Positions 3 through 17,651 of a stretch of DNA of 17,651 bases are shown piece after piece. The DNA lies in assembly GCA_045535075.1 (NCBI GenBank), contig JAZSKX010000003.1, forward strand, positions 1 to 17,651, given 5' to 3'. A program made the position numbers and the translations under genes. Positions within the stretch are counted from its first letter, which is position 1. Every line of letters begins with the position of its first letter. Source of the DNA: Candidatus Spyradenecus sp. (lineage in GTDB: Bacteria > Verrucomicrobiota > Verrucomicrobiia > Opitutales > UBA953). A model generated the notes under the pieces. The model was not told the DNA's origin and searched no databases. It saw nothing but the letters and a program-made list of their open reading frames with translations.

Positions 3-2003
3 GCACCGGTCCCCCCGGCAATGCCGAAAACGCCGCTTGCGACTCCGCCGCCCGTTCCCGCCGCGCGCCCGAACGCTCCCGTTCCGCCGCCGATTCCCCC
101 GATGGGACGCCCGGCTTCCGCTCCCGTGCCGCCAATGCCGAGCGTTCCCGCGCCCGCAGCAACGGACGCTGCGCCCGGCAAGAAAGAAGAACTTAAAAAA
201 GTTACGATGCGCGCACCGGTCGTTGTTCGCGACCTTGCAACCGCGCTCGATGTACGTCCGTTCCGACTCATTTCCGAGCTCATGAGCATGGGCGTTTTCG
301 CTTCCCTCAATCAGGATTTGGGCGACGAAATCGCAGTCAAAGTCGCAGAAAAATACGGTTTTGAACTTGATATTCACCGCCGCGAAAAAGGCGCGCAGCA
401 GGTGAAACCCGTTGTCATCGAAAAACCCAAGCCGGTTGACGACGAAAAAGACAAGATGCCGCGTCCGCCGGTCGTTTGCGTACTCGGCCACGTTGACCAC
501 GGGAAAACTACTTTGCTCGACTACTATCGTAAATCAAACGTTACGGCAGGAGAAGCCGGCGGAATTACGCAACACGTTGCCGCCTATTCCGTCAAGCACG
601 GCGATCAGTCGATTACCTTCCTCGACACACCCGGTCACGCGGCGTTTTCAAAAATGCGGGAACGCGGTGCCGCTCTCACGGACATTGCAGTCCTCGTTGT
701 CGCCGCAGACGACGGTTTCATGCCGCAAACGGACGAGGCACTTAAATTTGCACAGAAAAACAACGTTCAGCTCGTCGTCGCGATTAACAAAATCGACTCC
801 AAGGGCGCGAACATCGACCGCGTGAAACAACAAATGCAAAAACGCGGGATCACCTCCGAAGACTGGGGCGGAACGATTCAATGCGAACCGGTTTCCGCTC
901 TCAAGGGGACAAACATGGATTCGCTCTTGGATGCGATTTTGCTCCAAGCCGAAATGATGGAATTGAAGGCAAACCCGAAATGCCCGGCGGAAGGCACCGT
1001 CGTCGAAGCCCAAATGGAACAAGGCCGCGGACCGACGGCAACCGTCATCATCCAACGCGGAACGCTCAAAACAGGCGATGCATTGGTCTGCGGACCGCAT
1101 TTCTGCCGCGTTCGCGCCATCATGGACGAATACGGAAAACCGTTGAAGCAAATCGCGCCGGGTTGCCCGGGGCGCGTCATGGGCTGGTCCGGCGTTCCGT
1201 CTGCGGGAGCGATTTTCTCGACAGTTAAAAATGCACGGGAAGCGGAAAAAATCGCCGAAGAAAATCAATACAAGCTCCGCAAGGCAATTGAAGAGGAAGA
1301 AGAAAACAAGCGTCGCGCTCAAGACGAAGAGCAAAACGCCGGTCTTTCCGACATCGAACGCCTCAACCAATTGCTCGCGGGAACAAGCGAAAAAGTTTTC
1401 AAAGTCGTTACGAAAGCGGATGTGGACGGCACGCTCGAAGCGCTCAACGCGGCGCTCGAAGCCATCAAGTCTTCCCGCGTCAAACTCGAAATCGTCGGCG
1501 GCTCCGTCGGTCCGATTACACCGAGCGACGTCAACATGGCATCGGCCTCGAATGCAACGATTGTCGCGTTCGACGTGAAGGCGGATAACGGTGTTCCCGC
1601 ACTGATGAAACGCCAAAACGTCAACCTCGTCACGCACGACATCATTTACATGTTGCTCGACATGGTGAAGGAAGCGATGGCGGAACTGCTCGACCCGGAA
1701 TTGAAGGAAAACAAAGTCGGCATGGCGGAAGCGCGTGTTATTTATCCGTTCGGGAAAAACGCCTATGTCGCCGGCTCGATGGTCACGGAAGGCAGTATTC
1801 GCCGGGACTTCAACGCGCGCGTTTGGCGCAAGGGCGAAGTGCTTCACACGGGACGCATCGACACGCTCAAGCGCTTCAAAGAAGACGTTACGGAAGTCAA
1901 AGCCGGCTACGAATGCGGGATTCGCGTTACCGGCTTCGAAGAATATCAGGAGGGCGACCTCATCGAATGCTTCGAAATCCTCAAGATTCGTCCGCCGCTG
2001 TAA
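3..2003 (+). CDS. infB: Translation initiation factor IF-2 (5'-truncated by window edge)
   Basis: G1 GHVDHGKTTL, G2 GEAGGITQH, G3 DTPGHAAF, G4 INKID, C-terminal LKRFKEDV..VKAGYECG. The frame is open from nt 3 (APVPPAM...), so the true start is probably upstream of the window. The N-terminus is Pro/Ala-rich. Confidence 0.97.
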   Translation, partial: APVPPAMPKTPLATPPPVPAARPNAPVPPPIPPMGRPASAPVPPMPSVPAPAATDAAPGKKEELKKVTMRAPVVVRDLATALDVRPFRLISELMSMGVFASLNQDLGDEIAVKVAEKYGFELDIHRREKGAQQVKPVVIEKPKPVDDEKDKMPRPPVVCVLGHVDHGKTTLLDYYRKSNVTAGEAGGITQHVAAYSVKHGDQSITFLDTPGHAAFSKMRERGAALTDIAVLVVAADDGFMPQTDEALKFAQKNNVQLVVAINKIDSKGANIDRVKQQMQKRGITSEDWGGTIQCEPVSALKGTNMDSLLDAILLQAEMMELKANPKCPAEGTVVEAQMEQGRGPTATVIIQRGTLKTGDALVCGPHFCRVRAIMDEYGKPLKQIAPGCPGRVMGWSGVPSAGAIFSTVKNAREAEKIAEENQYKLRKAIEEEEENKRRAQDEEQNAGLSDIERLNQLLAGTSEKVFKVVTKADVDGTLEALNAALEAIKSSRVKLEIVGGSVGPITPSDVNMASASNATIVAFDVKADNGVPALMKRQNVNLVTHDIIYMLLDMVKEAMAELLDPELKENKVGMAEARVIYPFGKNAYVAGSMVTEGSIRRDFNARVWRKGEVLHTGRIDTLKRFKEDVTEVKAGYECGIRVTGFEEYQEGDLIECFEILKIRPPL

Positions 2004-3373
2004 AAGGCGTTCCCGCCGATTTCGGGAAAGTTGAAAATGTTGCGCACGCAGGACAACCGCTCCGGCGTGCGTGCATTTTTACGCTCGGATGCCGCCTCAA
2101 CCAGTACGAAACGGAAGTTTTACGGGACAAACTTGCCGCGGCCGGCTATCGTGTCGTCGAGTGGGGCGAAGCTGCAGATTTGGCGATTGTCAACACCTGT
2201 ACGGTAACCGGACTTGCCGAAGCAAAATGCCGCCAGATTATTCGCGGTTTTATCAAAGCGAATCCGAACGGATTTTGCGCCGTCGTCGGCTGCTATTCAC
2301 AAACGGGAACGCCGGCACTTGCGCGAATTCCCGGTATCGATCTGATTGTCGGGAATCAGGATAAACTCAACGTCCTCAATTACGTCGGCGACGGCACGAA
2401 AAACGCCGTTCCCGTCATCGTTCGCGAGAAAATTTCCCGGGAAGATTTTTCAGTTTCTTTTGTCGGAGAAATGCCGTTTAACAAACGCGCAAATCTCAAG
2501 ATTCAAGACGGTTGCGACTTCATGTGCTCGTACTGCATCATTCCGTTTGCACGCGGCAGAGCGCGTTCCCGCGAACTCGAAAACCTGCTCGACGAAGCCC
2601 GTTCGCTGGCGGCACGCGGCGTGCGCGAACTCGTTCTCACCGGCGTTAATATCGGAACTTACAGTAACGCGGGAACGGACATCCTCGGAGTCGTCGACGC
2701 GCTTGCCGCAATTCCGGGAATTGACAGAATTCGCATCGGAAGCATTGAACCAAAGACAATTCCGGACGGCATCTTTGACCGCATGAGCGATTCCGCGCAT
2801 CCGCTGATGCCGTTTTTGCATTTACCGATTCAGTCCGGTTGCGAACGCATTTTGCGCGACATGCGCCGCCATTACACGCTTGCAGAATATCTCGAATTTG
2901 TCGAAAAAATCGCCGCACGCGTTCCCGATATTTGTATCGGAACGGACATTATGATCGGCTTCCCCGGCGAAACAGACGAAGAGTTTGCCGAAACCTGCAC
3001 GACATTCATAAACGGTCCGTTCGCGTATTGCCACGTTTTTACTTACTCCGAGCGCGCGGGAACGCCCGCTGCCCGCCGCCCCGACCGAGTCCCCGTTCCC
3101 GTACGCCAACGCCGTTCCGCCGCCTTGCGCGCGCTTTCGTCGCAAAAACGTCGCATGTTCATGGGGCGTTACCTCGGAAAAAATGTCGAAGTGCTTTTCG
3201 AAAATCCCGCCGGCAACACATTTCCGGGTTACACACGCAACTACCTGCGCGTCATCGTTCCCGCAGACGAATTCCCGGGCGAAAATCTCGCAAACCAAAT
3301 ACGAACCGTCCGCCTCGCCGAAATTTCAGGAGATGTCATTTTCGGGGAAAGATGTCCTCCTGAAACAGATTAA
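1967..3373 (+). CDS. mtaB: tRNA t6A37 methylthiotransferase MtaB (MiaB-like radical SAM)
   Basis: UPF0004 motifs TLGCRLNQYE, VNTCTVT and VGCYSQ. Radical SAM motif KIQDGCDFMCSYCIIPFARG, plus GFPGET, HVFTYSERAGT and a TRAM-like end GYTRNYLRV. ATG 1967 is the only in-frame start near the first conserved motif and follows AGGAGG at 1948-1953. The start is inferred. Confidence 0.88.
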   Translation: MLRNPQDSSAAVKGVPADFGKVENVAHAGQPLRRACIFTLGCRLNQYETEVLRDKLAAAGYRVVEWGEAADLAIVNTCTVTGLAEAKCRQIIRGFIKANPNGFCAVVGCYSQTGTPALARIPGIDLIVGNQDKLNVLNYVGDGTKNAVPVIVREKISREDFSVSFVGEMPFNKRANLKIQDGCDFMCSYCIIPFARGRARSRELENLLDEARSLAARGVRELVLTGVNIGTYSNAGTDILGVVDALAAIPGIDRIRIGSIEPKTIPDGIFDRMSDSAHPLMPFLHLPIQSGCERILRDMRRHYTLAEYLEFVEKIAARVPDICIGTDIMIGFPGETDEEFAETCTTFINGPFAYCHVFTYSERAGTPAARRPDRVPVPVRQRRSAALRALSSQKRRMFMGRYLGKNVEVLFENPAGNTFPGYTRNYLRVIVPADEFPGENLANQIRTVRLAEISGDVIFGERCPPETD

Positions 3374-3454
3374 CAATTCGCCCAAAACCGGAATCGTTCT
3401 ACGCGCCGCGATTTGCAGGTATCCGCAATAAATTTAGCGGTGGTGTAGCGTCGT

Positions 3455-3477
3455 CGTTCCCGCGGGAACGCTTTTTT
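3455..3477 (+). terminator. Probable intrinsic terminator after infB-mtaB, made of two overlapping copies of the GTTCCCGC motif
   Basis: Perfect 16-bp palindrome CGTTCCCGCGGGAACG (3455-3470) followed by C and TTTTTT, about 80 nt after the mtaB stop. Confidence 0.6.
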
Positions 3478-3567
3478 GAGTAAATGGAATCGGAATTTTA
3501 CCGACGGGCAGCGAAAGAACATGCTTCACTGCCATTTCAAAATAAGTCAGTATTAGGTGTTTTATTT

Positions 3568-5142
3568 ATGAAAAAAGTTCTTATTCCGACTAAATTGGAT
3601 ACTGTTGCAGCCAAAACGCTTGCTGCCGCCGGATACACCGTTGTTCAGGACGCGGAAACGCCGATTGACGCTCAAGTCGCGACCAACGCCGACACCGTCG
3701 TTCTCATTGTTCGTTCCGAAAAGGTCACGCCCGCGATTATCGACGCGTTGCCGAAACTCAAAATCGTTATCCGCGCCGGTGCCGGATTTGACAACATCGA
3801 CATTGCTTACGCGCGAAAGAAAAATATCGACGTGATGAATACGCCGGGCGCGAACGCCAACGGCGTTGCCGAAGAAGTCGTCGCCATGATTCTCGCCTGT
3901 TTCCGCCATCTCGTTCCCGCAGACAACACGACGCGCGCCGGACTTTGGGAAAAGAAAAAATACATGGGCCGTGAGCTGACGAAAAAAACCGTCGGCATCG
4001 TCGGGCTCGGGAACATCGGTCGATTACTTGCCAAACGCTTGCAGGGCTTTGAGCCGAATCTCATCGGCTACGACCACTTTCTCGCCAAGCAACGCGCCAT
4101 TAATATCGGCGTAACGCCCGTACCGCTCGAACAAATTTTTGAAGAAGCCGACATCATTTCGCTTCACGTTCCCGGCGGAGCTTCGACGCAAAATCTCGTC
4201 AACGCCGAATTGCTCGGGAAAATGAAAGACGGCGCCATGCTTGTAAACTGTTCCCGCTACGGCGTTGTTGACGAAGCGGCGCTCGCCGAAGTTCGCGCTT
4301 CCGGCAAGAAAATTATTTACGCGACGGATGTTCACCCGAAAGATGCGGCCGGCGACAAACCGTCCGCCGCGGTTGCGGATTTAATTCTCCCGCACCTTGG
4401 AGCCAGTACGAAAGAGGCGAATTTCAACGCAGCGAAGCGTGCCGCGGAAGAGGCGATTGCGTATTTTGATAACGGAGACACCTCCTGCGTCGTCAACGCC
4501 GAAGTTCCGCTCGGGCTTGATCCGATGCAACTTCGCCTTGCGAAAATGCTGGCGACGCTCGCCCGTCTCGTCGGCGGGAACAAGGCGATTCGCCGTGCCG
4601 ACTGCACGTTTTCGGGCAGCCTGCGTTCTTTCCGCAAATGGTTTACACCGAAATTGCTCGAAGGTTTGTTGCCGCATGCAGAAAAAGGGTTGCCGCCGCC
4701 GATGGCAGACGTTTCGATCCGCGAGCACGGAATCGTTTATCAGGCGAAGGAGCCGCTCATCGGCAACGTCGAAGAAGATTCCATCGTTCTTGAAGTCATG
4801 ACGGAAGCGGCGGAAGGCAAGCATGAAACCGTCTGCGTTCGCGGGATTGTCGCGGAGAATACTCCGATTATTTCGTCGGTTAACGGCTTTAAAGGGCTGT
4901 ACTTTGACTTGCGCGGAAATCTCCTTTTTGTGCGCTACGCAGACCGGCCGGGCGTGCTTGCGCGCATTACTTCCGTACTCGGAGACGCCGAGATTAACAT
5001 TGAAAACATCACGGCTCCGATTGATCACGAAGCCGGAGAAACACTTGCCGTCATCAAGACGAACAAACCTGTTACGCCGGCTCAGGTTTCTGCCGTCGCA
5101 ACGCTCGTTAATGCGATTTCGGCATTTTCCGTTTCGTTCTAA
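3568..5142 (+). CDS. serA: D-3-phosphoglycerate dehydrogenase, long form with C-terminal ACT domain
   Basis: RAGAGFDNID, NTPGANA, Rossmann motif GIVGLGNIG, PHLGAST.EA, ACT motif YADRPG...INIE. ATG 3568 follows the SD-like AGGTG at 3555-3559. Confidence 0.88.
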   Translation: MKKVLIPTKLDTVAAKTLAAAGYTVVQDAETPIDAQVATNADTVVLIVRSEKVTPAIIDALPKLKIVIRAGAGFDNIDIAYARKKNIDVMNTPGANANGVAEEVVAMILACFRHLVPADNTTRAGLWEKKKYMGRELTKKTVGIVGLGNIGRLLAKRLQGFEPNLIGYDHFLAKQRAINIGVTPVPLEQIFEEADIISLHVPGGASTQNLVNAELLGKMKDGAMLVNCSRYGVVDEAALAEVRASGKKIIYATDVHPKDAAGDKPSAAVADLILPHLGASTKEANFNAAKRAAEEAIAYFDNGDTSCVVNAEVPLGLDPMQLRLAKMLATLARLVGGNKAIRRADCTFSGSLRSFRKWFTPKLLEGLLPHAEKGLPPPMADVSIREHGIVYQAKEPLIGNVEEDSIVLEVMTEAAEGKHETVCVRGIVAENTPIISSVNGFKGLYFDLRGNLLFVRYADRPGVLARITSVLGDAEINIENITAPIDHEAGETLAVIKTNKPVTPAQVSAVATLVNAISAFSVSF

Positions 5143-5164
5143 TTGAACGGATAGCGGAATTCAT

Positions 5165-5206
5165 AAAGCTGCGGGAACGACCTTGGCTTCGTTCCCGCAG
5201 TTTTTT
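5165..5206. terminator. Intrinsic terminator between convergent serA and ABC exporter; stem is an inverted pair of the GTTCCCGC motif
   Basis: CTGCGGGAACGA (5169-5180), loop CCTTGGCT, TCGTTCCCGCAG (5189-5200): a perfect 12-bp stem. It is followed by T6 and preceded by AAAG, so it may be bidirectional. Confidence 0.85.
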
Positions 5207-5226
5207 GTAAAATTATCCGATCCGGC

Positions 5227-7026
5227 TCAAACGCCCTGGCGATTATAAAGCTCTTTGTAAAGCGGGCAGGAGGCGTAAAGCTCGTCGTGGGAGCCGTCGC
5301 CGACGATACGGCCCTGAGAAAAAACGAGGATGCGTTGTGCGATGCGAATCGACGAGAAGCGGTGGGCAACGATAAATGTCGTCCGCCCGCGGACGAGTTC
5401 TTCAAGTTTGTCTTGGATTTTCTTTTCGCTTTCGGAATCAAGTGCCGCCGTCGCTTCATCGAGAATCAGAATCGGAGCGTCTTTTAAAAATGCCCGTGCA
5501 ATTGCCAGGCGCTGACGCTGACCGCCGGAAACGCCGCTCCCGACATCGCCCAGCATTTTATCCAAGCCTCCGCTATTCAACACAAAATCTTCCGCCGCTG
5601 CATTGCGCGCCGCACACTCGACGGCGGCGTCGGAAGCATCCCGGTTTCCGAGGCGAATATTTTCCCGAATGGTGTCACGGAATAGAACGGCATGTTGCGA
5701 AACCAAGGCGATAAAGCGGCGAAGCGTTTTCTTTTTCAAACGGCGAATATCGATTCCGTCGACGAGGATCGAGCCGGCGCTTGCTTCGTAAAAACGCAAA
5801 ATCAGACTTGCGAACGTTGTTTTTCCCGCGCCGCTGGGCCCGACGAGCGCGACGATTTGCCCGGCGGGAACGCGCACGTTGATATCGCTCAACACCTTAC
5901 GCCCGTTTTCATAGGCGAAATCGACGTTGCGAAACTCAATCGTTCCCGCGATCCGTTCCGGCTCAAGCGGCTTGTCCGGCTCGGGCATCGTGTCGGGTTC
6001 CGTCAGAATTTCCTCCAAGCGTTCAAGCGATGCCTGGGCTTGGCTGAATTTATTAAAGGAAACGCCCGTGCGTTTAATCGCATCCGCCGCGAAAAAGAGC
6101 GCTCCGGCGATTGCCATAAAATCCGTCAAAGCCATACCGAGCATTCGCCCGCGAACGAGAACGAACGCAAGCGCAAGTGCGGTTAAAAACTCCAGAGTCG
6201 GAGTCAGCAGCTGCTGGTATTTTACGGTTTTGAGCTGAGCCCGACAGAAGCGATTGGACGCGCGAGCCATGCGCGCCACCTGAGTTTCCTCCATCGCGTA
6301 CGAACGAATTTCGCGCTGTGCGGCAAGATTTTCCTGAACGACCGCCGTCATCTCGCCGATATTTTTTTGAGCTCCGCGAGCTTTGCGGACAACACGCCTT
6401 CCGAAGACAATAATCGGCGCAACGGCGATCACGGCAAAGACTGCGCTCGCGGCAAACATTGATGCTTCGGCCTTGTCGCTCAAGACATAGACAAGCGCGA
6501 CAATCGCACTGACGGCAGTGAGCGGCTGTTTCACGATATCGCTCGAAACCTGCGTGATCATATTTTGGACATTCTGCGCGTCCGTAACGATGCGGCTCAA
6601 AAGATCTCCGCGCATTTGTTTTTCGTGAAATGCGAGCGGTAGAGTTTGCAGGTGCGAGAAAACGCCGACACGAAGATTTTCGAGAACGCGCATCCCGAAA
6701 TAATTTACCGCCATCGCATTTACCCACATCGCCAAACCGCGTATGACGAAAACAATCGGCATTGCCGCGCAAGCGGTAAAAAGAACGGCGAAACCGAGGT
6801 TTTCCGGGCTAACGTACCGCGAAATAAAATCCAAGATCGGGCGCGGCATCGTGGAGGGGTCGAAAACGGCAGGGAAAACCTTGTAAATCAGCACGGGAAT
6901 GCCGAATCCGCTTGCCGCTGCGGCAATGAGTCCGGAAATCAGCGCTAACGCCAAATACCCTTTAACCGGCCAAATGTAGCCGGCATAATGCGCGATACGG
7001 GATACGATTTTTTTTAACTTTTTCAT
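5227..7026 (-). CDS. ABC exporter, fused TMD-NBD (MsbA/ABCB family), copy 2
   Basis: N-terminal TM helices, Walker A GPSGAGKT, Q-loop VSQ, signature VSGGQRQR, Walker B ILILDEAT, H-loop AHR. Its start overlaps the upstream paralog's stop (ATGA, 7023-7026). Confidence 0.92.
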   Translation of the reverse strand: MKKLKKIVSRIAHYAGYIWPVKGYLALALISGLIAAAASGFGIPVLIYKVFPAVFDPSTMPRPILDFISRYVSPENLGFAVLFTACAAMPIVFVIRGLAMWVNAMAVNYFGMRVLENLRVGVFSHLQTLPLAFHEKQMRGDLLSRIVTDAQNVQNMITQVSSDIVKQPLTAVSAIVALVYVLSDKAEASMFAASAVFAVIAVAPIIVFGRRVVRKARGAQKNIGEMTAVVQENLAAQREIRSYAMEETQVARMARASNRFCRAQLKTVKYQQLLTPTLEFLTALALAFVLVRGRMLGMALTDFMAIAGALFFAADAIKRTGVSFNKFSQAQASLERLEEILTEPDTMPEPDKPLEPERIAGTIEFRNVDFAYENGRKVLSDINVRVPAGQIVALVGPSGAGKTTFASLILRFYEASAGSILVDGIDIRRLKKKTLRRFIALVSQHAVLFRDTIRENIRLGNRDASDAAVECAARNAAAEDFVLNSGGLDKMLGDVGSGVSGGQRQRLAIARAFLKDAPILILDEATAALDSESEKKIQDKLEELVRGRTTFIVAHRFSSIRIAQRILVFSQGRIVGDGSHDELYASCPLYKELYNRQGV

Positions 7027-8858: not shown

Positions 8859-8868
8859 AGAAACCGGG

Positions 8869-10008
8869 CTAATCGGCACGTTCGCCGACGAATTTTTCGA
8901 GCTGATCCGCGACCACGGCAGCGCGACGGTATTGCTGCGGATTTACTTTTTCCAAATCGATACGGCATGCGCCCCGATTTTTCATCAGCGTTGCAACGAA
9001 ATCCGCAAACTCCGCATTAAATTTCTCCTGAACAAACGGCGATGCCACCGAACGTCCGGCGTTCCATTCCTCGACGTGCGGCGCAAATCCGCAAATATCC
9101 GTACAAATCACCGGTAAGCGGGAAACAACCGCCTCAATCAACACCGATCCGCCGGCTTCTTCCCGCGCGGGATGCACGAGCAAATCCATTCCGCACATCA
9201 GCTCGGGCACATCTCCCCGCCCGCCCAGATAAAAAACGGAATTTCTGATTCCCGCGTCTGTAGCGGCAGCAAAAAAATCCTTCGGATCGGAAGCGCCGAT
9301 CATAAAAAATTTCACGCGTTGCCTTCGTTCTTCCGGCAAAGCCGCGATTGCCGCAATCGCGCGATCCGCACCCTTGCGTTTAAAATCCGAACCGACCAGC
9401 GCGACCGCAAAAGCATCTCCGATGTTGAGTTCCCGCCGAACGCGTTCCCGCACTTCCGAAACATTTTTCACGTTCCCGCAACGGGAATCGAAGCCGACGG
9501 GAAGCGGAATAAAGCGAGTTTCCTGCGTGTTATACCAACGGCGATATTCGTCCTTTTGCTTTTCCGTAAGGGACAAAATTCGTGTGGCGGATTTCGGAGA
9601 AAAAACGCTTTCCTCCATTCGAAGAAAAACACGATAACGCGGAATTATTTTGCGAAACGCCCAAATTATCCGCCTGTGCAGGCTTTCCGCCAGACAGACG
9701 TCTCCGGCGAAATAAAAATCCAAGCCTTTCATGCGGTTAAAACCCAACACGCAATCAAATTTCTGAGCGCGCACAATCCGCCTGAGCTGCCGCTCGAACG
9801 ATTTTGCATAAACGTGATTGGTCATCCCGCGCAACGGAATCGTGTGCCAACGAATGCCTTCTATGGGAGCTTGCGGCAGCTCCGAATTGCGTCCGCAAAA
9901 AAGCTCGACGGAATGCCCGCGGCGCGCACACTCGCACGCCACCCGCAAAAAGTCTTTTTGCAAGCCTCCATGCGGGAAATAGCGAAATATGCATATTGCG
10001 ATTCTCAT
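8869..10008 (-). CDS. waaG: GT4 glycosyltransferase, LPS core glucosyltransferase WaaG/RfaG-like
   Basis: YFPHGGLQKDF, GFNRMKGLDFYFAGDVC, VGSDFKRKG and HPAREEAGGSVLIEA...LPVICTDICG match, from memory, the E. coli WaaG motifs YFPFGGLQRDF, GFNKMPGLDVYYAADVC, VGSDFTRKG and HPAYQEAAGIVLLEA. Confidence 0.85.
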   Translation of the reverse strand: MRIAICIFRYFPHGGLQKDFLRVACECARRGHSVELFCGRNSELPQAPIEGIRWHTIPLRGMTNHVYAKSFERQLRRIVRAQKFDCVLGFNRMKGLDFYFAGDVCLAESLHRRIIWAFRKIIPRYRVFLRMEESVFSPKSATRILSLTEKQKDEYRRWYNTQETRFIPLPVGFDSRCGNVKNVSEVRERVRRELNIGDAFAVALVGSDFKRKGADRAIAAIAALPEERRQRVKFFMIGASDPKDFFAAATDAGIRNSVFYLGGRGDVPELMCGMDLLVHPAREEAGGSVLIEAVVSRLPVICTDICGFAPHVEEWNAGRSVASPFVQEKFNAEFADFVATLMKNRGACRIDLEKVNPQQYRRAAVVADQLEKFVGERAD

Positions 10009-10166
10009 TCCGAACAAGTAACAACGCTCTTTTCATTGTAGTTGCTACGCGTTCCCGCAAGCAACCTTAAAGGCGATTCCGAAAATTAAATTTATCCCGA
10101 AAACGGAATCGGCGGCAACGCGTTCCCGCACAAATCTCAATTTTTCCGCTTTCAAACTTCCGCCTT

Positions 10167-10201
10167 CTTTAGGCTTTAAGCTTTAAGCTACAAACTCTAA
10201 C
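10167..10201 (+). repeat. Degenerate heptamer tandem repeat just upstream of cvrA
   Basis: CTTTAGG CTTTAAG CTTTAAG CTACAAA CTCTAAC, ending 9 nt before ATG 10211. Confidence 0.4.
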
Positions 10202-10210
10202 ATTCCGCCC

Positions 10211-11713
10211 ATGACGTTTACTCCGGACAACTACCTGCTTCTCGGCTCGCTACTTTTGCTCGGAAGTATCTTCGCAGGAAAGGCGACTTACAAAATCGGT
10301 GCGCCGCTGTTACTTCTCTTTCTCGGAATCGGTTTGCTGTGCGGCGAAAAAATCACGTTCACAAACTCCTCGGCCCTGAGCCTGCTCGGCGAACTCGCGC
10401 TCGTGTTCATCCTTTTCTCCGGCGGGCTCGACACCAAATACGCCGACATCCGCCCCGTTGCCGCTCGCGGGAGCATTCTCGCAACATTCGGTGTTTTGCT
10501 CACGGCGCTTTTTCTCGGCGGATTCATCTACGGAATCTCGCAACTTGAATTCGTCCCGCTTCAATTCAGCTTTGCCGAATCGCTCTTGCTCGGTTCCATT
10601 GTTTCCTCAACCGACGCCGCTTCCGTTTTCTCGATTTTTCGTTCCAAAAATACAGCCCTAAAGCACAACCTTCGTCCGCTTTTGGAATTGGAATCCGGCT
10701 CGAACGATCCGATGGCATACGTCCTCACGGCAACGCTCGTCGCCTACGTCGCAAACACCGGATCCGGAGAAGAAACACAGTCGCTCTGGATTGTTTTTCC
10801 GGACGTTCTCATCAACCTCGGTATCGGCGCTGCCGCGGGAGCGCTCTTCGGAAAAATCCTCGTCCGCGTAATCAATCGCGTCAACCTCCTCGTTGAAGGG
10901 CTTTACCCCGTCATGATGATCGCTCTGATGGCGTTGACGTTTTCGGCGACGCAGACACTTCACGGGAACGGTTTTCTTGCCGTTTACATCGCGGGCATGA
11001 TCCTCGGCAACGCGAAATTCATCCACAAGAAGATGATTATTAAATTTTACGACGGGTTCGCGTGGCTGATGCAAATTCTGCTCTTTCTCATGCTCGGTCT
11101 TTTTGCCGACATGAAATCCATTCGCGATGTCGCATTCGGCGGAATTTTAATTTCGCTTTTCCTGATTTTCGTCGCGCGCCCGCTCGCCGTCGGAGCCTGC
11201 CTTGCGCCGTTTCGACCGAACCGAAGCGTATTCGTCTTTACTTCATGGGTCGGCTTACGCGGCGCCGTTCCCATTGTTTTCGCATTAATTCCGCTAACGA
11301 CACCGGGCTTTGATCCCGAAATCGCCACGCTCATTTTTAATACCGTATTTTTCATTTCGGTTTCTTCGCTGCTGATTCAGGGAACAACGTTTTTCGCTGC
11401 GGCAAACTACCTCAAGCTCACTTGTGAATCCGACGCTCCTTCCTGTTCGGCGTTTGACAAAGACCTCGAAGAAATCAACACCCGCCTTTCGGAAATTTAT
11501 CTCGAGTCGAAACATTACGGAGCCGGGAAAACCCTCGCGGAACTCGCGTTCCCGCGCGGCGTCCTCGTCGTTATGATTAAACGCGGGAACGATTTTCTCA
11601 CACCGATCGGCTCAACTCGACTGCACGCCGGCGACATCCTGCAACTTCAGGCAGATACGCCGGAAAATCTCGCCGCCGCCCGTAAACAACTGATACGCGA
11701 AAACGATGTTTAA
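10211..11713 (+). CDS. cvrA: K+/H+ antiporter NhaP2/CvrA (CPA1) with C-terminal RCK_C/TrkA-C domain
   Basis: Many hydrophobic helices, with motifs ILFSGGLDT, SSTDAASVFS, LELESGSNDPMA and WVGLRGAVPIV. C-terminal GKTLAEL.FP...MIKR...P.GST.LHAGD. Confidence 0.9.
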   Translation: MTFTPDNYLLLGSLLLLGSIFAGKATYKIGAPLLLLFLGIGLLCGEKITFTNSSALSLLGELALVFILFSGGLDTKYADIRPVAARGSILATFGVLLTALFLGGFIYGISQLEFVPLQFSFAESLLLGSIVSSTDAASVFSIFRSKNTALKHNLRPLLELESGSNDPMAYVLTATLVAYVANTGSGEETQSLWIVFPDVLINLGIGAAAGALFGKILVRVINRVNLLVEGLYPVMMIALMALTFSATQTLHGNGFLAVYIAGMILGNAKFIHKKMIIKFYDGFAWLMQILLFLMLGLFADMKSIRDVAFGGILISLFLIFVARPLAVGACLAPFRPNRSVFVFTSWVGLRGAVPIVFALIPLTTPGFDPEIATLIFNTVFFISVSSLLIQGTTFFAAANYLKLTCESDAPSCSAFDKDLEEINTRLSEIYLESKHYGAGKTLAELAFPRGVLVVMIKRGNDFLTPIGSTRLHAGDILQLQADTPENLAAARKQLIRENDV

Positions 11714-13388
11714 AAAAACACTTATCGCCCTGGCAACCTGCGCGGGAATTGCCGTCGTCGTTCTCGGAATCTCCGCCTGCGGAGAACGCAATCCGCCGGC
11801 AAAGCGGGCTTCGGAGAAATCCGTTTTGCTCATCAACAACGGAGGCGAACCCTCTGCGCTCGACCCGCAATTCGCGCAACCCGGCGTCATCGAAAACCGA
11901 ATCATGCTCGCGCTTTTCGAAGGGCTTGTCCGCTACGACCCGAAAACACTGGAGCCCGTTCCCGCAATCGCCGAATCCCAAAGCGTTTCCGACGACGGGC
12001 TTCGCTGGACATTTCACCTGAGAAAAGACGCCGCGTTTTCCGACGGAACGCCCGTTACCGCCGACGATTTTCTCTTCTCGTTTCGCCGTATCCTCTCGCC
12101 CAAGCTTGCATCGCCCTGCGCGTCTTTGTTTTTTGCACCCGTAAAAAACGCACGCGCATTCGCCTCGGGAACGATTACAGATTTCTCCCGAGTCGGATTT
12201 TCCGCGCCCGACGCACACACGCTCGTCGTCGAACTCGAAAACCCCTGCCCGTATTTTCTCTCGCTCGCCTGCCACTCAAGCTGGAGCGTCGTTCCCGCGC
12301 ACACGATTTTGCGATTCGGCGAAATCGATTCGCGCTCCACGCTTTGGACGCGCCCCGAAAATTTTGTCGGAAGCGGGCCGTTTCGCCTGAAATCCTGGCG
12401 CGTCGCTTATCGTATCGAAGTCGAAAAAAACCCGCATTATTGGGATGCCGCCAACGTCTCCCTTAGCGGCATTCGATTCGATGCCGTCGAAGATCAATTT
12501 GCCGAAGAAGCCGCATTCAACGACGGTCAATATCACATCACAAACACCGTCCCGCCCTCGCGCGTTCCCGTTTTACGCAAAAAAAACGCTCCGCAACTTC
12601 GCCTCGATCCCTATCTTTCGACCGCGTTTATCCGAATTAACTGTTCTAAAGCTCCGCTAAACGATCCGCGTGTCCGCCGCGCGCTTTCACTCGCGCTCGA
12701 CCGCACGGCGCTTGCGGAACAAGTCATGCGAGGCGGTGAAACTCCCGCGGAAACCCTCGTTCCCGCAGACGCGTACTCCGTTTTGTATTTAAATAAAAAC
12801 AACAAAAGCACTCCGCCCGGAGAAACGCGTTCCCGCGAAGACGCGCTCCGTGAAGCGCGTGCATTGCTAGCGGAAGCCGGTTTCCCCGACGGGAAAGGCT
12901 TTCCCGAGCTCACCTACCTTTACAATACCTCCGACGGTGCCCAGTTTTTTGCACAGGCGATTCAGGAAATGTGGCGAAAAAACCTCGGCATCCGCGTCGC
13001 CCTAAAAAATCAGGAATATAAGGTCTACCGCATCAGCCTCGCCCAAGGCGATTACGAACTCGCTCGCTCGGCGTGGAGCGGCGACTATCTTGACCCGACA
13101 ACATTTTTGGAGCTTTTCGTCTCCGGCGGTCATATTAACTGGACGAAGTGGAGCGACGATCGCTACGACGCACTTCTCGCCGATGCCGCACGGGAACGCA
13201 ACCCCGAAGCCCGGGCACAAAAACTGAAAGCCGCCGAAAAAATTTTACTCGATGCCGCGCCGATTATCCCGACGCTCCATTCCCGCAGCAAATTTCTCAT
13301 TCGTCCGGAAGTCCGAGGCTGGCATCCGAACCTTCTCGATATTCATCCCTACACGGGAATAGAACTTAAGGAAACCTCTATAAATTAG
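11706..13388 (+). CDS. oppA: Peptide ABC transporter substrate-binding lipoprotein (OppA, SBP family 5)
   Basis: Signal peptide with lipobox-like ISAC, plus EPSALDP, LFEGLVRYD, WTFHLRKDAAFSDGTPVTADDF, GSGPFRL, KNPHYWD, DPRVRRALSLALDR and WSGDYLDP.TFL. Confidence 0.88.
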   Translation: MFKKTLIALATCAGIAVVVLGISACGERNPPAKRASEKSVLLINNGGEPSALDPQFAQPGVIENRIMLALFEGLVRYDPKTLEPVPAIAESQSVSDDGLRWTFHLRKDAAFSDGTPVTADDFLFSFRRILSPKLASPCASLFFAPVKNARAFASGTITDFSRVGFSAPDAHTLVVELENPCPYFLSLACHSSWSVVPAHTILRFGEIDSRSTLWTRPENFVGSGPFRLKSWRVAYRIEVEKNPHYWDAANVSLSGIRFDAVEDQFAEEAAFNDGQYHITNTVPPSRVPVLRKKNAPQLRLDPYLSTAFIRINCSKAPLNDPRVRRALSLALDRTALAEQVMRGGETPAETLVPADAYSVLYLNKNNKSTPPGETRSREDALREARALLAEAGFPDGKGFPELTYLYNTSDGAQFFAQAIQEMWRKNLGIRVALKNQEYKVYRISLAQGDYELARSAWSGDYLDPTTFLELFVSGGHINWTKWSDDRYDALLADAARERNPEARAQKLKAAEKILLDAAPIIPTLHSRSKFLIRPEVRGWHPNLLDIHPYTGIELKETSIN

Positions 13389-13444
13389 AGTTTCTGATGA
13401 GCGAGGAGAGGAAAGAGATGATAGGTATTTGCACCTCGCTTTGC

Positions 13445-13470
13445 GAAAAAGGTTTTCGAGAGCCTTTTTC
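13445..13470. terminator. Probable bidirectional terminator between convergent oppA and prmA
   Basis: GAAAAAGGTTT-TCGA-GAGCCTTTTTC hairpin with G-U pairs and flanking A5/T5 tracts. It is adjacent to a second hairpin TTCCCGC-CT-GCGGGAA (13468-13483). Confidence 0.6.
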
Positions 13471-13512
13471 CCGCCTGCGGGAACGCATTTACCCTGAGTA
13501 CTCTTCTCTCTT

Positions 13513-14394
13513 TTATTCGCGAAACAGCGCAACGTCGGACCATTCGCCCATAACGCGCCCGTCCACGCGAACTTTGCCCCAGGCTTTTTGCGCTTTTTTC
13601 TCAAAAATCTCCATGACCGATTTTTGCTCGCTCGCGAGAATCCCGCTCAACGCGAGTACGCCGCCTTCCCTGACGGAGGCGACAAGATTATCCGCATAAA
13701 TGCAAAGCACGTCGCTGATAATATTCGCCAACACAACATCGCGCGCTCCCGCCGAGCGCAAACCGCTTTCCAAACCTTCGTGAACAAAGGCGACGGCGGA
13801 TTCCGGCAAATTGTTCTTCCCGCGGTTTTCGGCGGAGACTTCAACGGCTTCGGGATCGCGGTCAAATCCGTAAACATTTTTTGCGCCGAGCTGAGCCGCC
13901 GAAATCGCAAGAATTCCGGAGCCGCAACCGGCATCCGTCACGGAAACTTCTGCGGGAACGTGCGCGTCAAGAAACTCAACCAAGCGCATTCCGCAAAGGC
14001 GCGTCGTCGGGTGATCGCCCGTTCCGAAGGCCAGACCCGCGTCGAAATAAACAACGGCATCGCCCGCGGGAACGGCGTATTCCGCGCGGCGCCATTCCGG
14101 CACCCAATGCAGGCGGCCGAAACTCCACGGATGCAAATTCGCCTTGTAGGCTTCTTTCCAATCACGATCTTCAAGCGTTCCGACTTGCGGCTTTTCGGGA
14201 AGCATTTTAAACGATTTGCGCAAATCCGCCCACGCGTCGAATGCCTCGGACTCGCTGTCGAAATAACCCATCAGCACGTGCGGAGCTCCGACTTTTTCAT
14301 GAAAAATCAGCCACGGCGAACGCACCAATTCGCAGAAAAAATCCTCAAGCGGTTGCGCCAAGGACGAATCAATTTCACAACGTGTTTCGATCAT
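13513..14394 (-). CDS. prmA: Ribosomal protein L11 methyltransferase
   Basis: DWKEAYK, AGLAFGTGDHPTT, SAM motif DAGCGSGILAI, ANI, LSGIL and a C-terminal GEW. Confidence 0.93.
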   Translation of the reverse strand: MIETRCEIDSSLAQPLEDFFCELVRSPWLIFHEKVGAPHVLMGYFDSESEAFDAWADLRKSFKMLPEKPQVGTLEDRDWKEAYKANLHPWSFGRLHWVPEWRRAEYAVPAGDAVVYFDAGLAFGTGDHPTTRLCGMRLVEFLDAHVPAEVSVTDAGCGSGILAISAAQLGAKNVYGFDRDPEAVEVSAENRGKNNLPESAVAFVHEGLESGLRSAGARDVVLANIISDVLCIYADNLVASVREGGVLALSGILASEQKSVMEIFEKKAQKAWGKVRVDGRVMGEWSDVALFRE

Positions 14395-14420
14395 TTTTCT
14401 AAGATGTAATTAAGGTTTAA

Positions 14421-14999
14421 TTATGCTTCGCCGAGAGAAATGCGCCGAATGACATCGGGAAGAATCTTGTGTTCCGCCGCATGAATTTTTTGTTCAAAGC
14501 TTTCCTGCGTATCCGTCTTTTCGCGACGGACAACCGCTTGATCGATAATCGCCCCGCCGTCCACCGCAGAATTAACGTAATGAACCGTGCATCCGCTGAC
14601 TGCGACGCCGTAGCGCCACGCCTGCCCGATGCCGTCAAGCCCCGGGAACGACGGCAACAGCGACGGATGCAAATTGATGATGCGATTCGGGAACGCATCG
14701 AGTAGCGGCGCTTTCAACACGCGCATAAAGCCAGCAAGCACAATCCAGTCCGCTCCCGCAGCTTTAACGGCTTCGGCGTAAGCGGCTTCGCACTCGGGCG
14801 AGAATTTGGTTTTGAACGGGCCCGGATTCAAGTAGCTCGCGGGAACGCCGTAAGTTTCGCCGTGCGAAAGAATCTTCGCGCCGGGGATATCGCAAAAAAT
14901 CGCAACAGGCTCAGCCTTGCCGAGCGTTCCCGCGCGATATGCCTTAAGAATTGCTTCTGCGTTAGTTCCTGTTCCCGAGCCGAGGATTGCAAATTTCAT
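14421..14999 (-). CDS. purN: Phosphoribosylglycinamide formyltransferase
   Basis: LGSGTGTN, VLAGFMRVL, NLHPSLLPSFPG, GCTVHYV...DGGAII.Q and EHKILP. ATG at 14999. Confidence 0.95.
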   Translation of the reverse strand: MKFAILGSGTGTNAEAILKAYRAGTLGKAEPVAIFCDIPGAKILSHGETYGVPASYLNPGPFKTKFSPECEAAYAEAVKAAGADWIVLAGFMRVLKAPLLDAFPNRIINLHPSLLPSFPGLDGIGQAWRYGVAVSGCTVHYVNSAVDGGAIIDQAVVRREKTDTQESFEQKIHAAEHKILPDVIRRISLGEA

Positions 15000-15116
15000 A
15001 CCGAAAAAACTACTCCCGTTCCCGCTCAAATGCGAGAGAGAATTATTTCGCAACGTTTTCGGACTTTAAGCTCAAAAACGAAAAATGCCGCGAAAGAGTT
15101 CCCGCACAACGACGCT

Positions 15117-15923
15117 TTATTTACGCTCCGATTTCAGCGCCTCAACTTCCTCGCGCAAGCGGCGGACTTCTTCGAGGATCTGACGATTCAACGCCATGTT
15201 TTCTTTCCCGAATTCATCTTCCTGAGGCTCCTGCTTCGGCTGGGATTCCGCAACCGCCGTACACATCACCCCGATGAACAAATTCAAAACCGTGTACGTC
15301 GCAATTACGATAAACGGAACAAACATCAGCCACGCATACGGGAACTCCTCCATCACGGGACGCACAATCCCCATCGACCAGCTCTCCAAAGTCATAATTT
15401 GGAACAAACTGTACATCGACTTCCCGATGCTTCCGAACCAATCCGGAAACGCCGCTCCGAAAAGATTCGTCGCAATCACACTGCAAATATAAAAGAAAAT
15501 CGCCAATAAAAGACTGATCCACCCGATGCTCGGAACCGACTTAAAAAGCGACTCGGTAATTACCTTTAAGCGCGGGATGCGGGAAAACAAACGCGCCACA
15601 CGCAAAACGCGCAACGAGCGCAGCGCCGAAAACGCGCCGTTCCCGGGGACCAGGGCAATCGCCACCACCAGAAAATCGAAAACATTCCAACCCGATTTGA
15701 AAAAACGAGGACCGTCCGCAATCAGTTTTAAAACAATCTCAATCGTAAAAATCGTGATAAACGCAATATCCACGATGCGGCTAATATGCCCGACCGCCGC
15801 CGTCCACGCCGGACTCGTATCCAAGCCCAACTGAATCGCATTCACGATAATACAAAAGAGAATGAAATTCTGAACAAATTTGGAATAAACAAATTTCCCG
15901 CAAAAAAAAGAGAGCGTTTTCAT
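15117..15923 (-). CDS. Voltage-gated sodium channel-like ion transporter (BacNav, 6TM)
   Basis: S2 FTIEI, S3 WNVFDF, S4 RSLRVLRVARL, selectivity filter TLESWSM (15372-15392), S6 LNLFIGV and a C-terminal coiled coil (ILEEVRRLREEVEAL). Confidence 0.92.
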   Translation of the reverse strand: MKTLSFFCGKFVYSKFVQNFILFCIIVNAIQLGLDTSPAWTAAVGHISRIVDIAFITIFTIEIVLKLIADGPRFFKSGWNVFDFLVVAIALVPGNGAFSALRSLRVLRVARLFSRIPRLKVITESLFKSVPSIGWISLLLAIFFYICSVIATNLFGAAFPDWFGSIGKSMYSLFQIMTLESWSMGIVRPVMEEFPYAWLMFVPFIVIATYTVLNLFIGVMCTAVAESQPKQEPQEDEFGKENMALNRQILEEVRRLREEVEALKSERK

Positions 15924-15984
15924 AAATTAAATAAAACCGCATTTAACACCAATGCAGGGGTATAAACGAATACGAATTTTCAAC

Positions 15985-16010
15985 AAGAGGAACACAGCGC
16001 TATTCCTCTT
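15985..16010 (-). terminator. Possible hairpin/terminator downstream of the zinc-ribbon gene
   Basis: Minus-strand AAGAGGAAUA-GCGCUG-UGUUCCUCUU stem; the U-tail is weak. Confidence 0.35.
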
Positions 16011-16055
16011 CTACTCGTGCCCCTTCGTTATTTGACATTAGCGTTAGAAACGACT

Positions 16056-16577
16056 TTAAACTGCACAGAGAATCGACAGAGCAAAAAGTACGCACCAAAC
16101 AATCGTGTAGGCAGGACCGTCCTGAAGAAGCTTTGCCCGCTTATAGAGATAAACCGGAATAATGGCTGTTGCCCAACCGAAATCGGACATATTGAGCTTC
16201 TGTTTCCCCAAATTACTCTCGTCTATATAGCAAAGAACAATATTCAAGATAAGACAACCGCCGCCGAGCCCGATGATAATATCCAGAGTCAGCGGAACAA
16301 TCGCAATCGCCCAAGCGAAAATCATGTTTTTCCGAACGTCTTCGGGAGATAAATCCTCCACGGCGACAAAATCTTCTACAGTTTCGCCTTCCGGAGTCTC
16401 CGCGTTATCCTCGACTTCCGGCGGCGCCGCAAGATCAAGAGATTCCTGCGGGAACGGCTCCTTTAATTTCGCTTCTTCTCCCGCAGAAGCGTTTCCCGTT
16501 TCCCCAACAGCGTTCCCGCAGCTCGGGCAAAAATTTGACGTTTCGGGAAGCTCTTTCCCGCAATGAATGCAAAACAT
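16056..16577 (-). CDS. Zinc-ribbon domain membrane protein
   Basis: N-terminal MFCIHCGKEL...NFCPSCG, an acidic linker and C-terminal hydrophobic segments with IIPVYLYKRA. ATG 16577 is preceded by GGAAAGGA. Confidence 0.78.
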   Translation of the reverse strand: MFCIHCGKELPETSNFCPSCGNAVGETGNASAGEEAKLKEPFPQESLDLAAPPEVEDNAETPEGETVEDFVAVEDLSPEDVRKNMIFAWAIAIVPLTLDIIIGLGGGCLILNIVLCYIDESNLGKQKLNMSDFGWATAIIPVYLYKRAKLLQDGPAYTIVWCVLFALSILCAV

Positions 16578-16591
16578 TGAATCCTTTCCGA

Positions 16592-17008
16592 TTAAAGTTT
16601 TTTCCCGCAAAAAGAGCAAAACGCTCCGCCCTTCGAGGGTTTCCCGCAATGAGGGCAAAAACCGTTGTCCGGCGCGGCAGTATCCGCTCCCGCAGAAGCC
16701 GTACCAACCGCTTGAATGTTTTCTCCGTAACGATTGTAAATCCTCTTATTCGCATTCGACGAATTCGTCGTCGGATCGTTTAAGACAACATCCGCAACGC
16801 CGGTTTCCCGCGGCCAGCACGCCCAAACCATGGCAACCACCCAGCCGACACCGAGAATGGACGAACCAAATACATTGACCACAAAAATGATCCATCTATA
16901 GTGATGTACCCGACAGAATGCGATAATTGTCGGCAAAAGGAATAAAAACAGTCCTGCGACACAGAGAAAAAGAACGAGAATTAATCCGATTATTTCATCT
17001 TCAGTCAT
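16592..17008 (-). CDS. Superinfection immunity (T4 Imm-like) domain protein fused to a C-terminal zinc ribbon
   Basis: FLLPTIIAF.R.H.Y.W.IF.VNVF.....GWVVAMVWA fits the Imm_superinfect pattern (YFLPTIIA..R.H....I..LN..LGWT.IGWV.AL.WA). C-terminal FCPHCGK..KGGAFCSFCGKKL. Confidence 0.78.
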   Translation of the reverse strand: MTEDEIIGLILVLFLCVAGLFLFLLPTIIAFCRVHHYRWIIFVVNVFGSSILGVGWVVAMVWACWPRETGVADVVLNDPTTNSSNANKRIYNRYGENIQAVGTASAGADTAAPDNGFCPHCGKPSKGGAFCSFCGKKL

Positions 17009-17072
17009 AGAAAAAAAAGAGAAGTTAGAGAAAAACCAAAGGCGAAAGTCGAGACTCTCACTTCAAAAGGTA

Positions 17073-17109
17073 AACCTCCTGTACGACAGTATTTTTCGCA
17101 CAGGAGGTT
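17073..17109 (-). terminator. Probable intrinsic terminator after the TM2 gene
   Basis: AACCTCCTGTACGA (17073-17086) and TCGCACAGGAGGTT (17096-17109) form a 14-bp stem. The one mismatch is a G-U pair on the minus-strand RNA, which continues UACCUUUU. It lies 15 nt past the TM2 stop. Confidence 0.65.
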
Positions 17110-17123
17110 CACTATTTTAGTTC

Positions 17124-17345: not shown

Positions 17346-17376
17346 AAGTAATTGGTTTATTCTATTTTGTTAATGA

Positions 17377-17493: not shown

Positions 17494-17651
17494 CCTTTCT
17501 ATTGTGTTTCCTTACTCATAGTTTTTGTGAGTTTAATTTTGTTTGTTGTAGGTTGAGAAAAAATGAAATACCCCGTTGCCGGGTTTAATGCCGGGCGACA
17601 GGGTCAATAAAATCAGGCAAATATAAACGCTTTACTTTTGTTGAGGCGGAT

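Follow-up and report, generated by a model that had tools for sequence, protein, structure and literature searches.

The DNA uptake sequences (DUS) of the Neisseriaceae come as 10-12-mer dialects that are read by the minor pilin ComP, and the uptake signal sequences (USS) of the Pasteurellaceae consist of a 9-mer core with flanks, for which the minor pilin ComN has reportedly been predicted as receptor. In a recent survey (10.1101/2025.10.24.684340) sequence-specific self-DNA uptake is described for two proteobacterial families only, and the traits listed there for DUS and USS are a word of ~9-10 nt in thousands of copies covering up to ~2% of the chromosome, inverted repeats in terminators, a frame bias within genes, clade limits, and copies that are enriched in the core genome and lacking in DNA of recent acquisition. 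Another hyper-abundant word is the highly iterated palindrome HIP1 of cyanobacteria, which according to PMC5861425 is 15- to 300-fold over-represented and conserved, with a proposed role in nucleoid structure. Here we describe an 8-mer, CGTTCCCG, that saturates a stretch of 17,651 nucleotides from the gut bacterium Candidatus Spyradenecus sp. (Verrucomicrobiota, Opitutales; GenBank assembly GCA_045535075.1, contig JAZSKX010000003.1), called the window below, which comprises the whole contig (C4). Judged from its distribution, CGTTCCCG may well be a lineage-specific self-DNA uptake signal of the DUS/USS type, a reading whose chances we consider to be even.

An over-represented octamer that acts at the DNA level

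The initial annotation had read the window as saturated with a dispersed, non-palindromic word. The saturation stood, whereas the frame chosen for the word did not: GTTCCCGC, the form used there, lies one base off the strongest core, which is CGTTCCCG with gCGTTCCCGy as extended form. The counts given were exact, with 42 copies of GTTCCCGC in the window (27 on the + strand and 15 on the - strand; expectation 1.50 and maximum 5 in 200 dinucleotide-preserving shuffles), 36 of CGTTCCCGC (0.60 expected), 19 of GCGTTCCCGC and 8 of CGCGTTCCCGC, and the one-mismatch forms mentioned occur as 7 copies of GTTCCCGA, 8 of GTTCCCGT and 3 of GTTCCCGG; the GC content, assumed to be ~53%, was measured as 0.528. 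CGTTCCCG itself has 51 copies in the window (30 on the + strand, 21 on the - strand), 41 of them within ten housekeeping or transport genes (infB, a MiaB-like radical-SAM gene, serA, two ABC exporter genes, a GT4 transferase gene, a Na+/H+ exchanger gene, an SBP_bac_5 gene, prmA and purN), 3 in the ion-channel and zinc-ribbon genes and 7 outside called genes.

The enrichment extends beyond the window, a point on which the reading in the initial annotation depended: in the window's own genome (G000; 18 contigs, 1.95 Mb, 99.45% complete; counts take both strands) every contig >16 kb has 1.97 to 3.21 copies/kb. CGTTCCCG is the commonest 8-mer of this genome, with 5159 copies (2.65/kb, one per 378 bases) that cover ~2.1% of all bases (8 x copy number). 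The median for 8-mers of the same composition (n=420) is 75 copies, which places CGTTCCCG ~70-fold above them. A halo of single-base variants, each of them also raised (26 to 857 copies), surrounds it. Around the invariant 8-mer the sequence logo has G at -1 in 47% of the copies, C (63%) or T (25%) at +8 and a purine at +9. By -2 and +11 no more than 0.03 bit of information is left and the flanks are flat outside -1 to +10, indicating an isolated word rather than the core of a longer repeat. A dispersed repeat of the repetitive extragenic palindrome (REP) or miniature inverted-repeat transposable element (MITE) type is ruled out, as no conserved sequence extends well past the core.

On which level does the word act? 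Crude gene calls for the genome (1579 open reading frames, ORFs, covering ~91% of it) place 4478 copies in ORFs (2.51/kb) and 675 in intergenic DNA (4.08/kb). Within genes the copies are spread over all six frames (358, 301 and 1167 copies in sense, 419, 1462 and 771 in antisense), the favoured frames reading xVPA and A/T-G-T. The excess survives the codon-aware null that had been proposed as a check, since shuffling synonymous codons within genes leaves 476-528 copies (~503) and shuffling codon order 138-197, vs 4484 observed. An order-6 Markov model predicts 5030 copies vs 5159 observed, but high-order Markov nulls are uninformative in this case because their sub-words come almost wholly from the motif itself. 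The word acts at the level of DNA, not of protein or RNA.

In this draft genome the leading and lagging strands are inferred from GC skew only. Strong polarity along the replichores had been named as a pointer to Chi or to the FtsK orienting polar sequences (KOPS), and the polarity found is too weak for either: overall the C-rich form lies on the C-rich strand in 54.9% of cases, and intergenic copies, with 315 vs 340 in the two orientations (51.9%), have no replication-strand polarity. Motif skew and GC skew correlate with -0.58 in 20-kb windows, a weak correlation that results from the antisense preference within genes together with gene orientation, and the two most extreme skew windows are caused by two giant genes (C5:125845-140217 and C8:185333-198142; 4791 and 4270 aa) that hold 61 and 47 copies, each in a single orientation. 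These genes presumably encode repeat-domain surface proteins whose repeat unit holds the word in one frame. GC skew itself flips from negative to positive at C16:~190000-200000, beside a Mu-like prophage, and this flip may mark the replication origin or terminus.

The spacing of the copies is near Poisson (coefficient of variation 1.10) without strong regularity, the one departure being gaps >3.2 kb, of which 16 were observed vs 1 expected. At short range adjacent pairs in the order CGTTCCCG-N-CGGGAACG within 40 nt are in excess (203 vs 130 expected) and pairs in the opposite order are scarce (49 vs 133 expected), with start-to-start spacing of the inverted pairs peaking at 20 nt. Intergenic inverted pairs lie mostly past the ends of genes, with an A-tract on one side and a T-tract on the other. 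The pairing in terminators that the initial annotation had named as a mark of the known uptake sequences is borne out here by the pair excess and the A/T-tract flanks, with 3455-3477 and 5169-5206 as examples in the window, and the inverted pairs are predicted to have the shape of bidirectional intrinsic terminators.

Range within the genus, maintenance and decay

The comparison across related genomes that the initial annotation had called for bore out a motif common to the whole genus and absent from its neighbours. The 9-mer was counted in 19 genomes of the genus (G000 and 18 other species), all 19 of which lie above the reversed-word controls (37-87 copies). Fourteen of the 18 other species genomes hold 3060-5581 copies (15/19 with G000), three hold 732-760 and one holds 340; the low-density four are G001, G002 and G013, called the trio below, and G014, the remaining 15 being high-density. 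None of 102 genomes from four sister genera of the family rises above control, and in the 12 genomes taken from other families of the order the count stays within about a quarter above it. When 401 genomes from 184 genera across the phylum were sampled, only the five genomes of this genus had thousands of copies, and none of the other 396 had more than 0.09/kb, the maximum being 326 copies in 3.8 Mb. The excess of the word is confined to one gut Opitutales genus. Dialects, which were part of the same proposal, did not appear: when 52-91 kb of each low-density species was sampled, three of the four still had this word as their top 9-mer, and the fourth had no substitute for it.

By IF-2, the closest named records are bins from gut metagenomes that bear the labels Opitutales, Candidatus Spyradenecus and Candidatus Spyradosoma. 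In a tree of a single gene, that for IF-2, the genus is monophyletic (100/100) and the trio forms a clade (99/96) that is sister to G000 (100/96), while the 340-copy species branches apart, at the base of a larger clade containing the trio and G000. High-density species stand on both sides of the tree, which makes two independent reductions the parsimonious reading. At the aligned sites of the window the trio, at ~81% identity to G000, has the exact word at 6/41 (G001), 11/42 (G002) and 6/41 (G013) sites, and mostly relics with 1 or 2 mismatches. The more distant high-density species G018 and G004, at 76-78% identity, have it at 16/29 and 12/30. Among the 7112 positions aligned in all six genomes, 7 sites are common to G000 and G018/G004 and lost in the whole trio, 7 are unique to G000, 1 is unique to the trio and 1 is found in G002 and G018 only.

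G000 was also compared with 70% of G013 (1.48 of 2.11 Mb; 1.06 Mb aligned at 80.2% identity). Only 602 of 2806 aligned G000 sites are exact in G013 (21.5%), the same as for random 8-mers (20.8%), whereas 602 of 753 G013 sites (80%) are exact in G000. At 724 of G013's sites G000 is identical at 95% of the 8 core bases vs 80% of the flanks, and the edges are sharp (per-base identity 0.92-0.98 in the core, 0.84 at -1, 0.82 at +8, mean 0.80 in the flanks). In the reverse direction, at 2749 G000 sites, identity in G013 is 79.5% in the core vs 76.8% in the flanks and the core is not prominent. For every one-off copy there are 0.80 perfect copies in G000 and 0.23 in G013, with similar one-off density. 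From these alignments the exact 8-mer is maintained and newly made in the G000 lineage and decays at background rate in the sister trio. A footprint limited to the core would be produced by biased uptake, by selection for a binding site and by biased repair alike.

Foreign DNA, competence genes and competing explanations

Gaps of more than 3 kb without the word number 20 in G000 vs 1.8 expected from a Poisson distribution, and the genes in eight of these regions were annotated with Pfam. In agreement with the proposed contrast between core genes and prophages or horizontally acquired islands, prophages and defence islands are ~5-fold depleted. Two Mu-like prophages of normal GC (0.52-0.55) at C16:~183000-221000 and C8:~20000-32300, recognized by Gam, a MuB-like ATPase, Gp27, terminase, the Mu portal protein and a Dam-type methylase, have 0.55 and 0.57 copies/kb vs 2.65/kb genome-wide, and defence or restriction-modification islands have 0 to 1.5 copies/kb. 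One prophage ORF (L117:5561-7024) contains an ADP-ribosyltransferase exoenzyme domain (E 6.5e-8). The low-GC defence islands (C2:15779-22230; C12:44670-48977; C16:146600-152800; C5:229513-234342) carry genes for an MmeI-type enzyme with a reverse-transcriptase protein and T5orf172, for a C5 methylase with an NgoBV-type endonuclease and an AAA_15 ATPase, for TIR and PD-(D/E)XK proteins and for a 1609-aa double helicase. In core DNA the genes for rpoB, L10 and L1 (C5:244666-249204) form a 4.5-kb motif-free stretch, and it seems that the word is kept out of genes under very strong constraint. None of the 28 IMG/VR contigs with the hairpin pattern was motif-dense in the stretches examined (0.11-0.98/kb), which says little because phages of the genus may be absent from that collection.

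The search for competence genes that had been suggested succeeded for ComEC (570 aa in G000), DprA and type IV pilus genes and failed for ComEA and for a ComP-type receptor. The pilus genes of G000 comprise one ~990-aa secretin, a pilB / pilT-like / pilB / pilC cluster and seven pilin-like genes, including an intact four-gene minor-pilin operon (C1:259.1-262.4 kb). ComEC, DprA and RecC are each found in 19/19 genomes of the genus. The ~990-aa secretin is found in 18/19, the miss being a 92%-complete high-density genome, and a ~1000-aa secretin in 61/62 genomes family-wide. Twelve of the 19 genomes have 7 pilin-like genes, one has 10 and six have 11, and neither the pilus ATPase cluster nor the minor-pilin operon is shortened in G001, G002, G013 and G014, the stop codons observed there falling in over-extended N-termini of the gene models. 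Competence genes are also common in the control genomes, from bacteria not known to transform. Gene loss was considered as the cause of the low-density lineages and rejected, the competence genes and RecC being present and none of the genes surveyed tracking the pattern. A second secretin (~775-880 aa) with 3-4 extra pilin-like genes adjoining it, making up a second cluster like that of a type II secretion system (T2SS), occurs in G001, G002, G004, G012, G013, G014 and G018 and is missing in G000 and 11 others; its presence does not follow motif density. A synteny screen of the 1579 crude ORFs of G000 against the 70% of G013 gave 853 ORFs with ortholog-like matches and 76 without one inside a fully covered syntenic interval, ~650 falling in neither class. 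The 76 are shadow ORFs, island genes, lipopolysaccharide and metabolic genes and fast-evolving membrane proteins.

How could a word of this kind come to fill a genome? It could be imagined that a surface receptor of the type IV pilus or competence system prefers word-bearing DNA, that word-bearing fragments would then be taken up and recombined more often, and that the word would thereby spread and be kept throughout the resident genome. We infer biased DNA uptake as the driving force and a pilin-type protein as the reader. CGTTCCCG appears to display all sequence-level traits of DUS and USS that are listed in the survey (10.1101/2025.10.24.684340). The DUS-like interpretation of the initial annotation holds for the sequence-level hallmarks but not for a ComEA- or ComP-type receptor or for dialects, and the competence genes are intact where the motif decays. 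Several observations weigh against an uptake signal. The organism is known from metagenome bins only. Only ~6.5% of the copies stand in inverted pairs and 87% in genes, whereas the known families have about half of their uptake sequences (the DUES of the same survey) in terminators. Prophages still hold ~14x the same-composition background, an intermediate density that an intracellular process could explain. In Pfam, ComEC shows only the Competence channel domain; ComEA was not found in G000, where the lone strong HHH_3 match is Tex, and there was no match to PF16732 (ComP_DUS) at E<=0.1. ComEC, DprA, secretin, pilins and pilus ATPases are equally present, and intact wherever examined, in the four low-density species, so that gene content explains neither the restriction to the genus nor the two losses, and among the 76 ORFs absent from the covered 70% of G013 there was no DNA-binding or uptake candidate for a reader. 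HIP1, moreover, provides a precedent for a hyper-abundant 8-mer whose reasons are still disputed (PMC4390886, PMC5861425).

With no receptor found, no dialect seen and the machinery intact in the decaying sisters, a HIP1-like structural word keeps its place as the main rival to the uptake signal. CGTTCCCG would then be bound by a chromosome or nucleoid protein specific to the genus, or serve another cis function, under ordinary selection and without a link to uptake. The core-limited footprint and the conservation above background are what would be expected of a selected binding site. Yet we know of no nucleoid protein with ~5000 near-randomly placed asymmetric 8-mers, and near-Poisson spacing, use of all frames in genes and the lack of promoter preference argue against such a site, as does the lack of a candidate protein in the partial gene-content contrast (70% of G013). 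Although the HIP1 precedent itself speaks for it, and lineage-specific loss resembles the cyanobacteria lacking HIP1 (PMC4390886), a structural role alone does not predict a 5-fold depletion in prophages of normal GC, and we consider this explanation unlikely. Alternatively, a methylase with a Vsr-type nuclease, or other biased repair, could turn near-matches into the exact word within the cell. Such a process would fit the one-off halo, gains that continue in the G000 lineage and are near-absent in the trio, and the intermediate density of resident prophages, and a methylation-dependent mismatch repair model was proposed by Elhai for HIP sequences (PMC4390886). However, C5 methylases are sporadic (10/19 genus genomes), missing from 8 high-density genomes and present in low-density G001, G002 and G014, and the MmeI-type enzyme, in 9/19, does not track density either. 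The C5, Dam-type and MmeI-type methylases of G000 all lie in motif-poor prophages or islands, and a crude motif screen of this genome for N6 methylases brought up three type I HsdM subunits, of which two are also conserved in the low-density species G013. As known Vsr effects are small and the word, unlike all HIPs, is non-palindromic, we hold creation by repair or methylation to be distinctly unlikely.

A polar signal of the Chi or KOPS type, read by RecBCD or FtsK, could draw on the presence of RecC, and hence RecBCD, in G000 and on the G-rich form being slightly commoner on the G-rich strand (54.9%; skew correlation -0.58). But the intergenic copies (315 vs 340) do not share this bias, the small overall skew being due to gene orientation and the two giant genes, and RecC is present in 19/19 genomes of the genus, including those in which the word decays. 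To our knowledge one copy per 378 bases, ~70-fold over same-composition words, is also far above any known Chi or KOPS, and a signal of this type is most improbable. That the word is a by-product of codon usage, of a repeated peptide or of assembly or binning can scarcely be entertained. The two giant repeat-rich genes do hold 108 copies in one frame and the xVPA and A/T-G-T frames are preferred, but codon-aware shuffles leave only 4-11% of the observed count, all six frames and intergenic DNA are occupied, density is uniform on large contigs and saturation with the same word recurs in 14 other species genomes that were assembled independently. Shuffles, frame use, contig uniformity and the 14 other genomes together refute such an artefact. 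The rest of the probability we leave to an explanation outside those listed here. Within the uptake reading, the fuller proposition that CGTTCCCG would be the first self tag for DNA uptake outside the Proteobacteria, covering ~2% of the genome, with a reader unrelated to ComP and switched off in two decaying sister lineages, falls a little short of an even chance in our estimate.

The window in detail and its relation to known systems

The copies of the core in the window are collected in the table. A search of the window with Rfam at gathering threshold gave no match. In the full-text literature, the candidate 8-mers appeared among the matches listed in primers and the like, never as a genomic motif, and no link of uptake sequences to Verrucomicrobia or to this genus was found. 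A dispersed repeat of ~61 nt that ends in the motif lies at 3403-3463 of the window and at C6:467-527, C12:1832-1873 and C13:26227-26287 (4 copies in G000 at 84-100% identity), with ~24 short matches of 79-93% across G001, G002 and G013; a mobile-element end and a small structured RNA are both conceivable identities for it. Towards the right end of the window (15000-17651) GC drops to 0.48 and the stretch encodes, in small genes, a zinc-ribbon protein and a protein with a superinfection-immunity domain. Positions 16519-17651 hold zero copies of CGTTCCCG. This right end, which is also the contig end, may be the edge of an acquired segment.

Table. Copies of the core CGTTCCCG and terminator-like structures in the window.
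Position	Strand	Location or structure	Remarks
53..60	+	infB	
143..150	+	infB	exact in G002 and G018 orthologs
657..664	-	infB	motif in same column in 8/19 genus genomes incl. G000; one-off in G001, G002, G018, G004; two-off in G013
2008..2015	+	directly past infB stop	
2304..2311	-	radical-SAM (MiaB-like) gene	
2407..2414	+	radical-SAM gene	exact in G018/G004; one-off in low-density trio
2564..2571	+	radical-SAM gene	
2670..2677	-	radical-SAM gene	
2920..2927	+	radical-SAM gene	
3057..3064	-	radical-SAM gene	
3094..3101	+	radical-SAM gene	
3256..3263	+	radical-SAM gene	
3455..3477	+	terminator-like, radical-SAM gene/serA interval	abutting inverted core pair CGTTCCCGCGGGAACG (3455-3470), then C + T6
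3912..3919	+	serA	
4167..4174	+	serA	exact in 5/5 relatives compared
5169..5206	+	terminator-like hairpin between convergent serA and ABC exporter gene	CTGCGGGAACG / 10-nt loop / CGTTCCCGCAG, then T6; two inverted core copies, 5172-5179 (-) and 5190-5197 (+)
5865..5872	-	ABC exporter 1	
5941..5948	+	ABC exporter 1	
7028..7035	+	junction of both ABC exporter genes	
7422..7429	+	ABC exporter 2	
7712..7719	-	ABC exporter 2	
7877..7884	+	ABC exporter 2	
8428..8435	-	ABC exporter 2	
8624..8631	-	ABC exporter 2	
9443..9450	+	GT4 glycosyltransferase gene	
9471..9478	+	GT4 glycosyltransferase gene	
10050..10057	+	intergenic (divergent promoter region)	
10121..10128	+	intergenic	
10963..10970	-	Na+/H+ exchanger gene	
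11547..11554	+	Na+/H+ exchanger gene	
11584..11591	-	Na+/H+ exchanger gene	inverted partner of 11547, 37 nt away
11957..11964	+	SBP_bac_5 gene	exact in G018/G004; two shared mismatches in low-density trio
12166..12173	-	SBP_bac_5 gene	
12290..12297	+	SBP_bac_5 gene	
12563..12570	+	SBP_bac_5 gene	
12758..12765	+	SBP_bac_5 gene	
12828..12835	+	SBP_bac_5 gene	
13191..13198	-	SBP_bac_5 gene	
13478..13485	-	intergenic	
13953..13960	-	prmA	
14067..14074	-	prmA	
14643..14650	-	purN	
14688..14695	-	purN	
14840..14847	-	purN	
14925..14932	+	purN	
15017..15024	+	purN	
15638..15645	+	ion-channel gene	
16449..16456	-	zinc-ribbon protein gene	
16511..16518	+	zinc-ribbon protein gene	last in window

If the uptake reading is true, CGTTCCCG would be a third, independent case of self-DNA uptake, in another phylum, and the strategy would be a general one. 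Natural transformation would then be frequent in gut Verrucomicrobia, the case at hand concerning gut bacteria that are abundant and uncultured, and the decaying sister lineages would be natural knock-outs with which the identity of the reader and the strength of the drive in the wild could be approached. The word would also serve as a barcode that assigns metagenomic contigs, prophages and plasmids to the genus. Whatever its function, the contrast between sisters, with maintenance in one (95% vs 80%) and decay at background rate in the other, constitutes a rare natural experiment on hyper-abundant words, the creation and upkeep of which are still debated for HIP1 after three decades.

Among the known systems, Chi and KOPS resemble CGTTCCCG as asymmetric 8-mers over-represented on a chromosome in which RecBCD is present, but the intergenic copies of CGTTCCCG have no replication polarity and Chi and KOPS are far sparser. 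HIP1 and the alternate HIPs of cyanobacteria (GCGATCGC) share with it the length of 8 nt, a frequency of about one copy per gene, tens- to hundreds-fold over-representation, conservation at the DNA level and loss in some lineages (PMC4390886, PMC5861425). HIPs are, however, palindromes tied to orphan methylases, whereas CGTTCCCG is not its own reverse complement and neither a C5 nor an MmeI-type methylase tracks its density. A periodicity of 10-90 kb has been reported for HIP1. Compared with the USS of the Pasteurellaceae, CGTTCCCG lacks AT-rich flanking segments, its logo being flat past +10, but like USS it lies mostly in genes in tolerated frames, has a core conserved at the DNA level and is surrounded by a one-off halo; the four-gene minor-pilin operon of G000 is comparable in layout to comNOPQ. 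The DUS of the Neisseriaceae are unrelated in sequence and belong to hosts outside the Verrucomicrobiota, and no ComP_DUS domain was found in G000. CGTTCCCG also differs from them in being denser (2.65/kb), with ~6.5% of its copies in inverted pairs and 87% in genes, and in showing two decaying lineages instead of dialects. Like DUS, nevertheless, CGTTCCCG is a short non-palindromic word present in thousands of copies in both orientations over ~2% of the genome, and the two share, with DUS as described in the survey (10.1101/2025.10.24.684340), terminators made of inverted pairs, a frame bias in genes, a taxon-wide occurrence and depletion in recent acquisitions.

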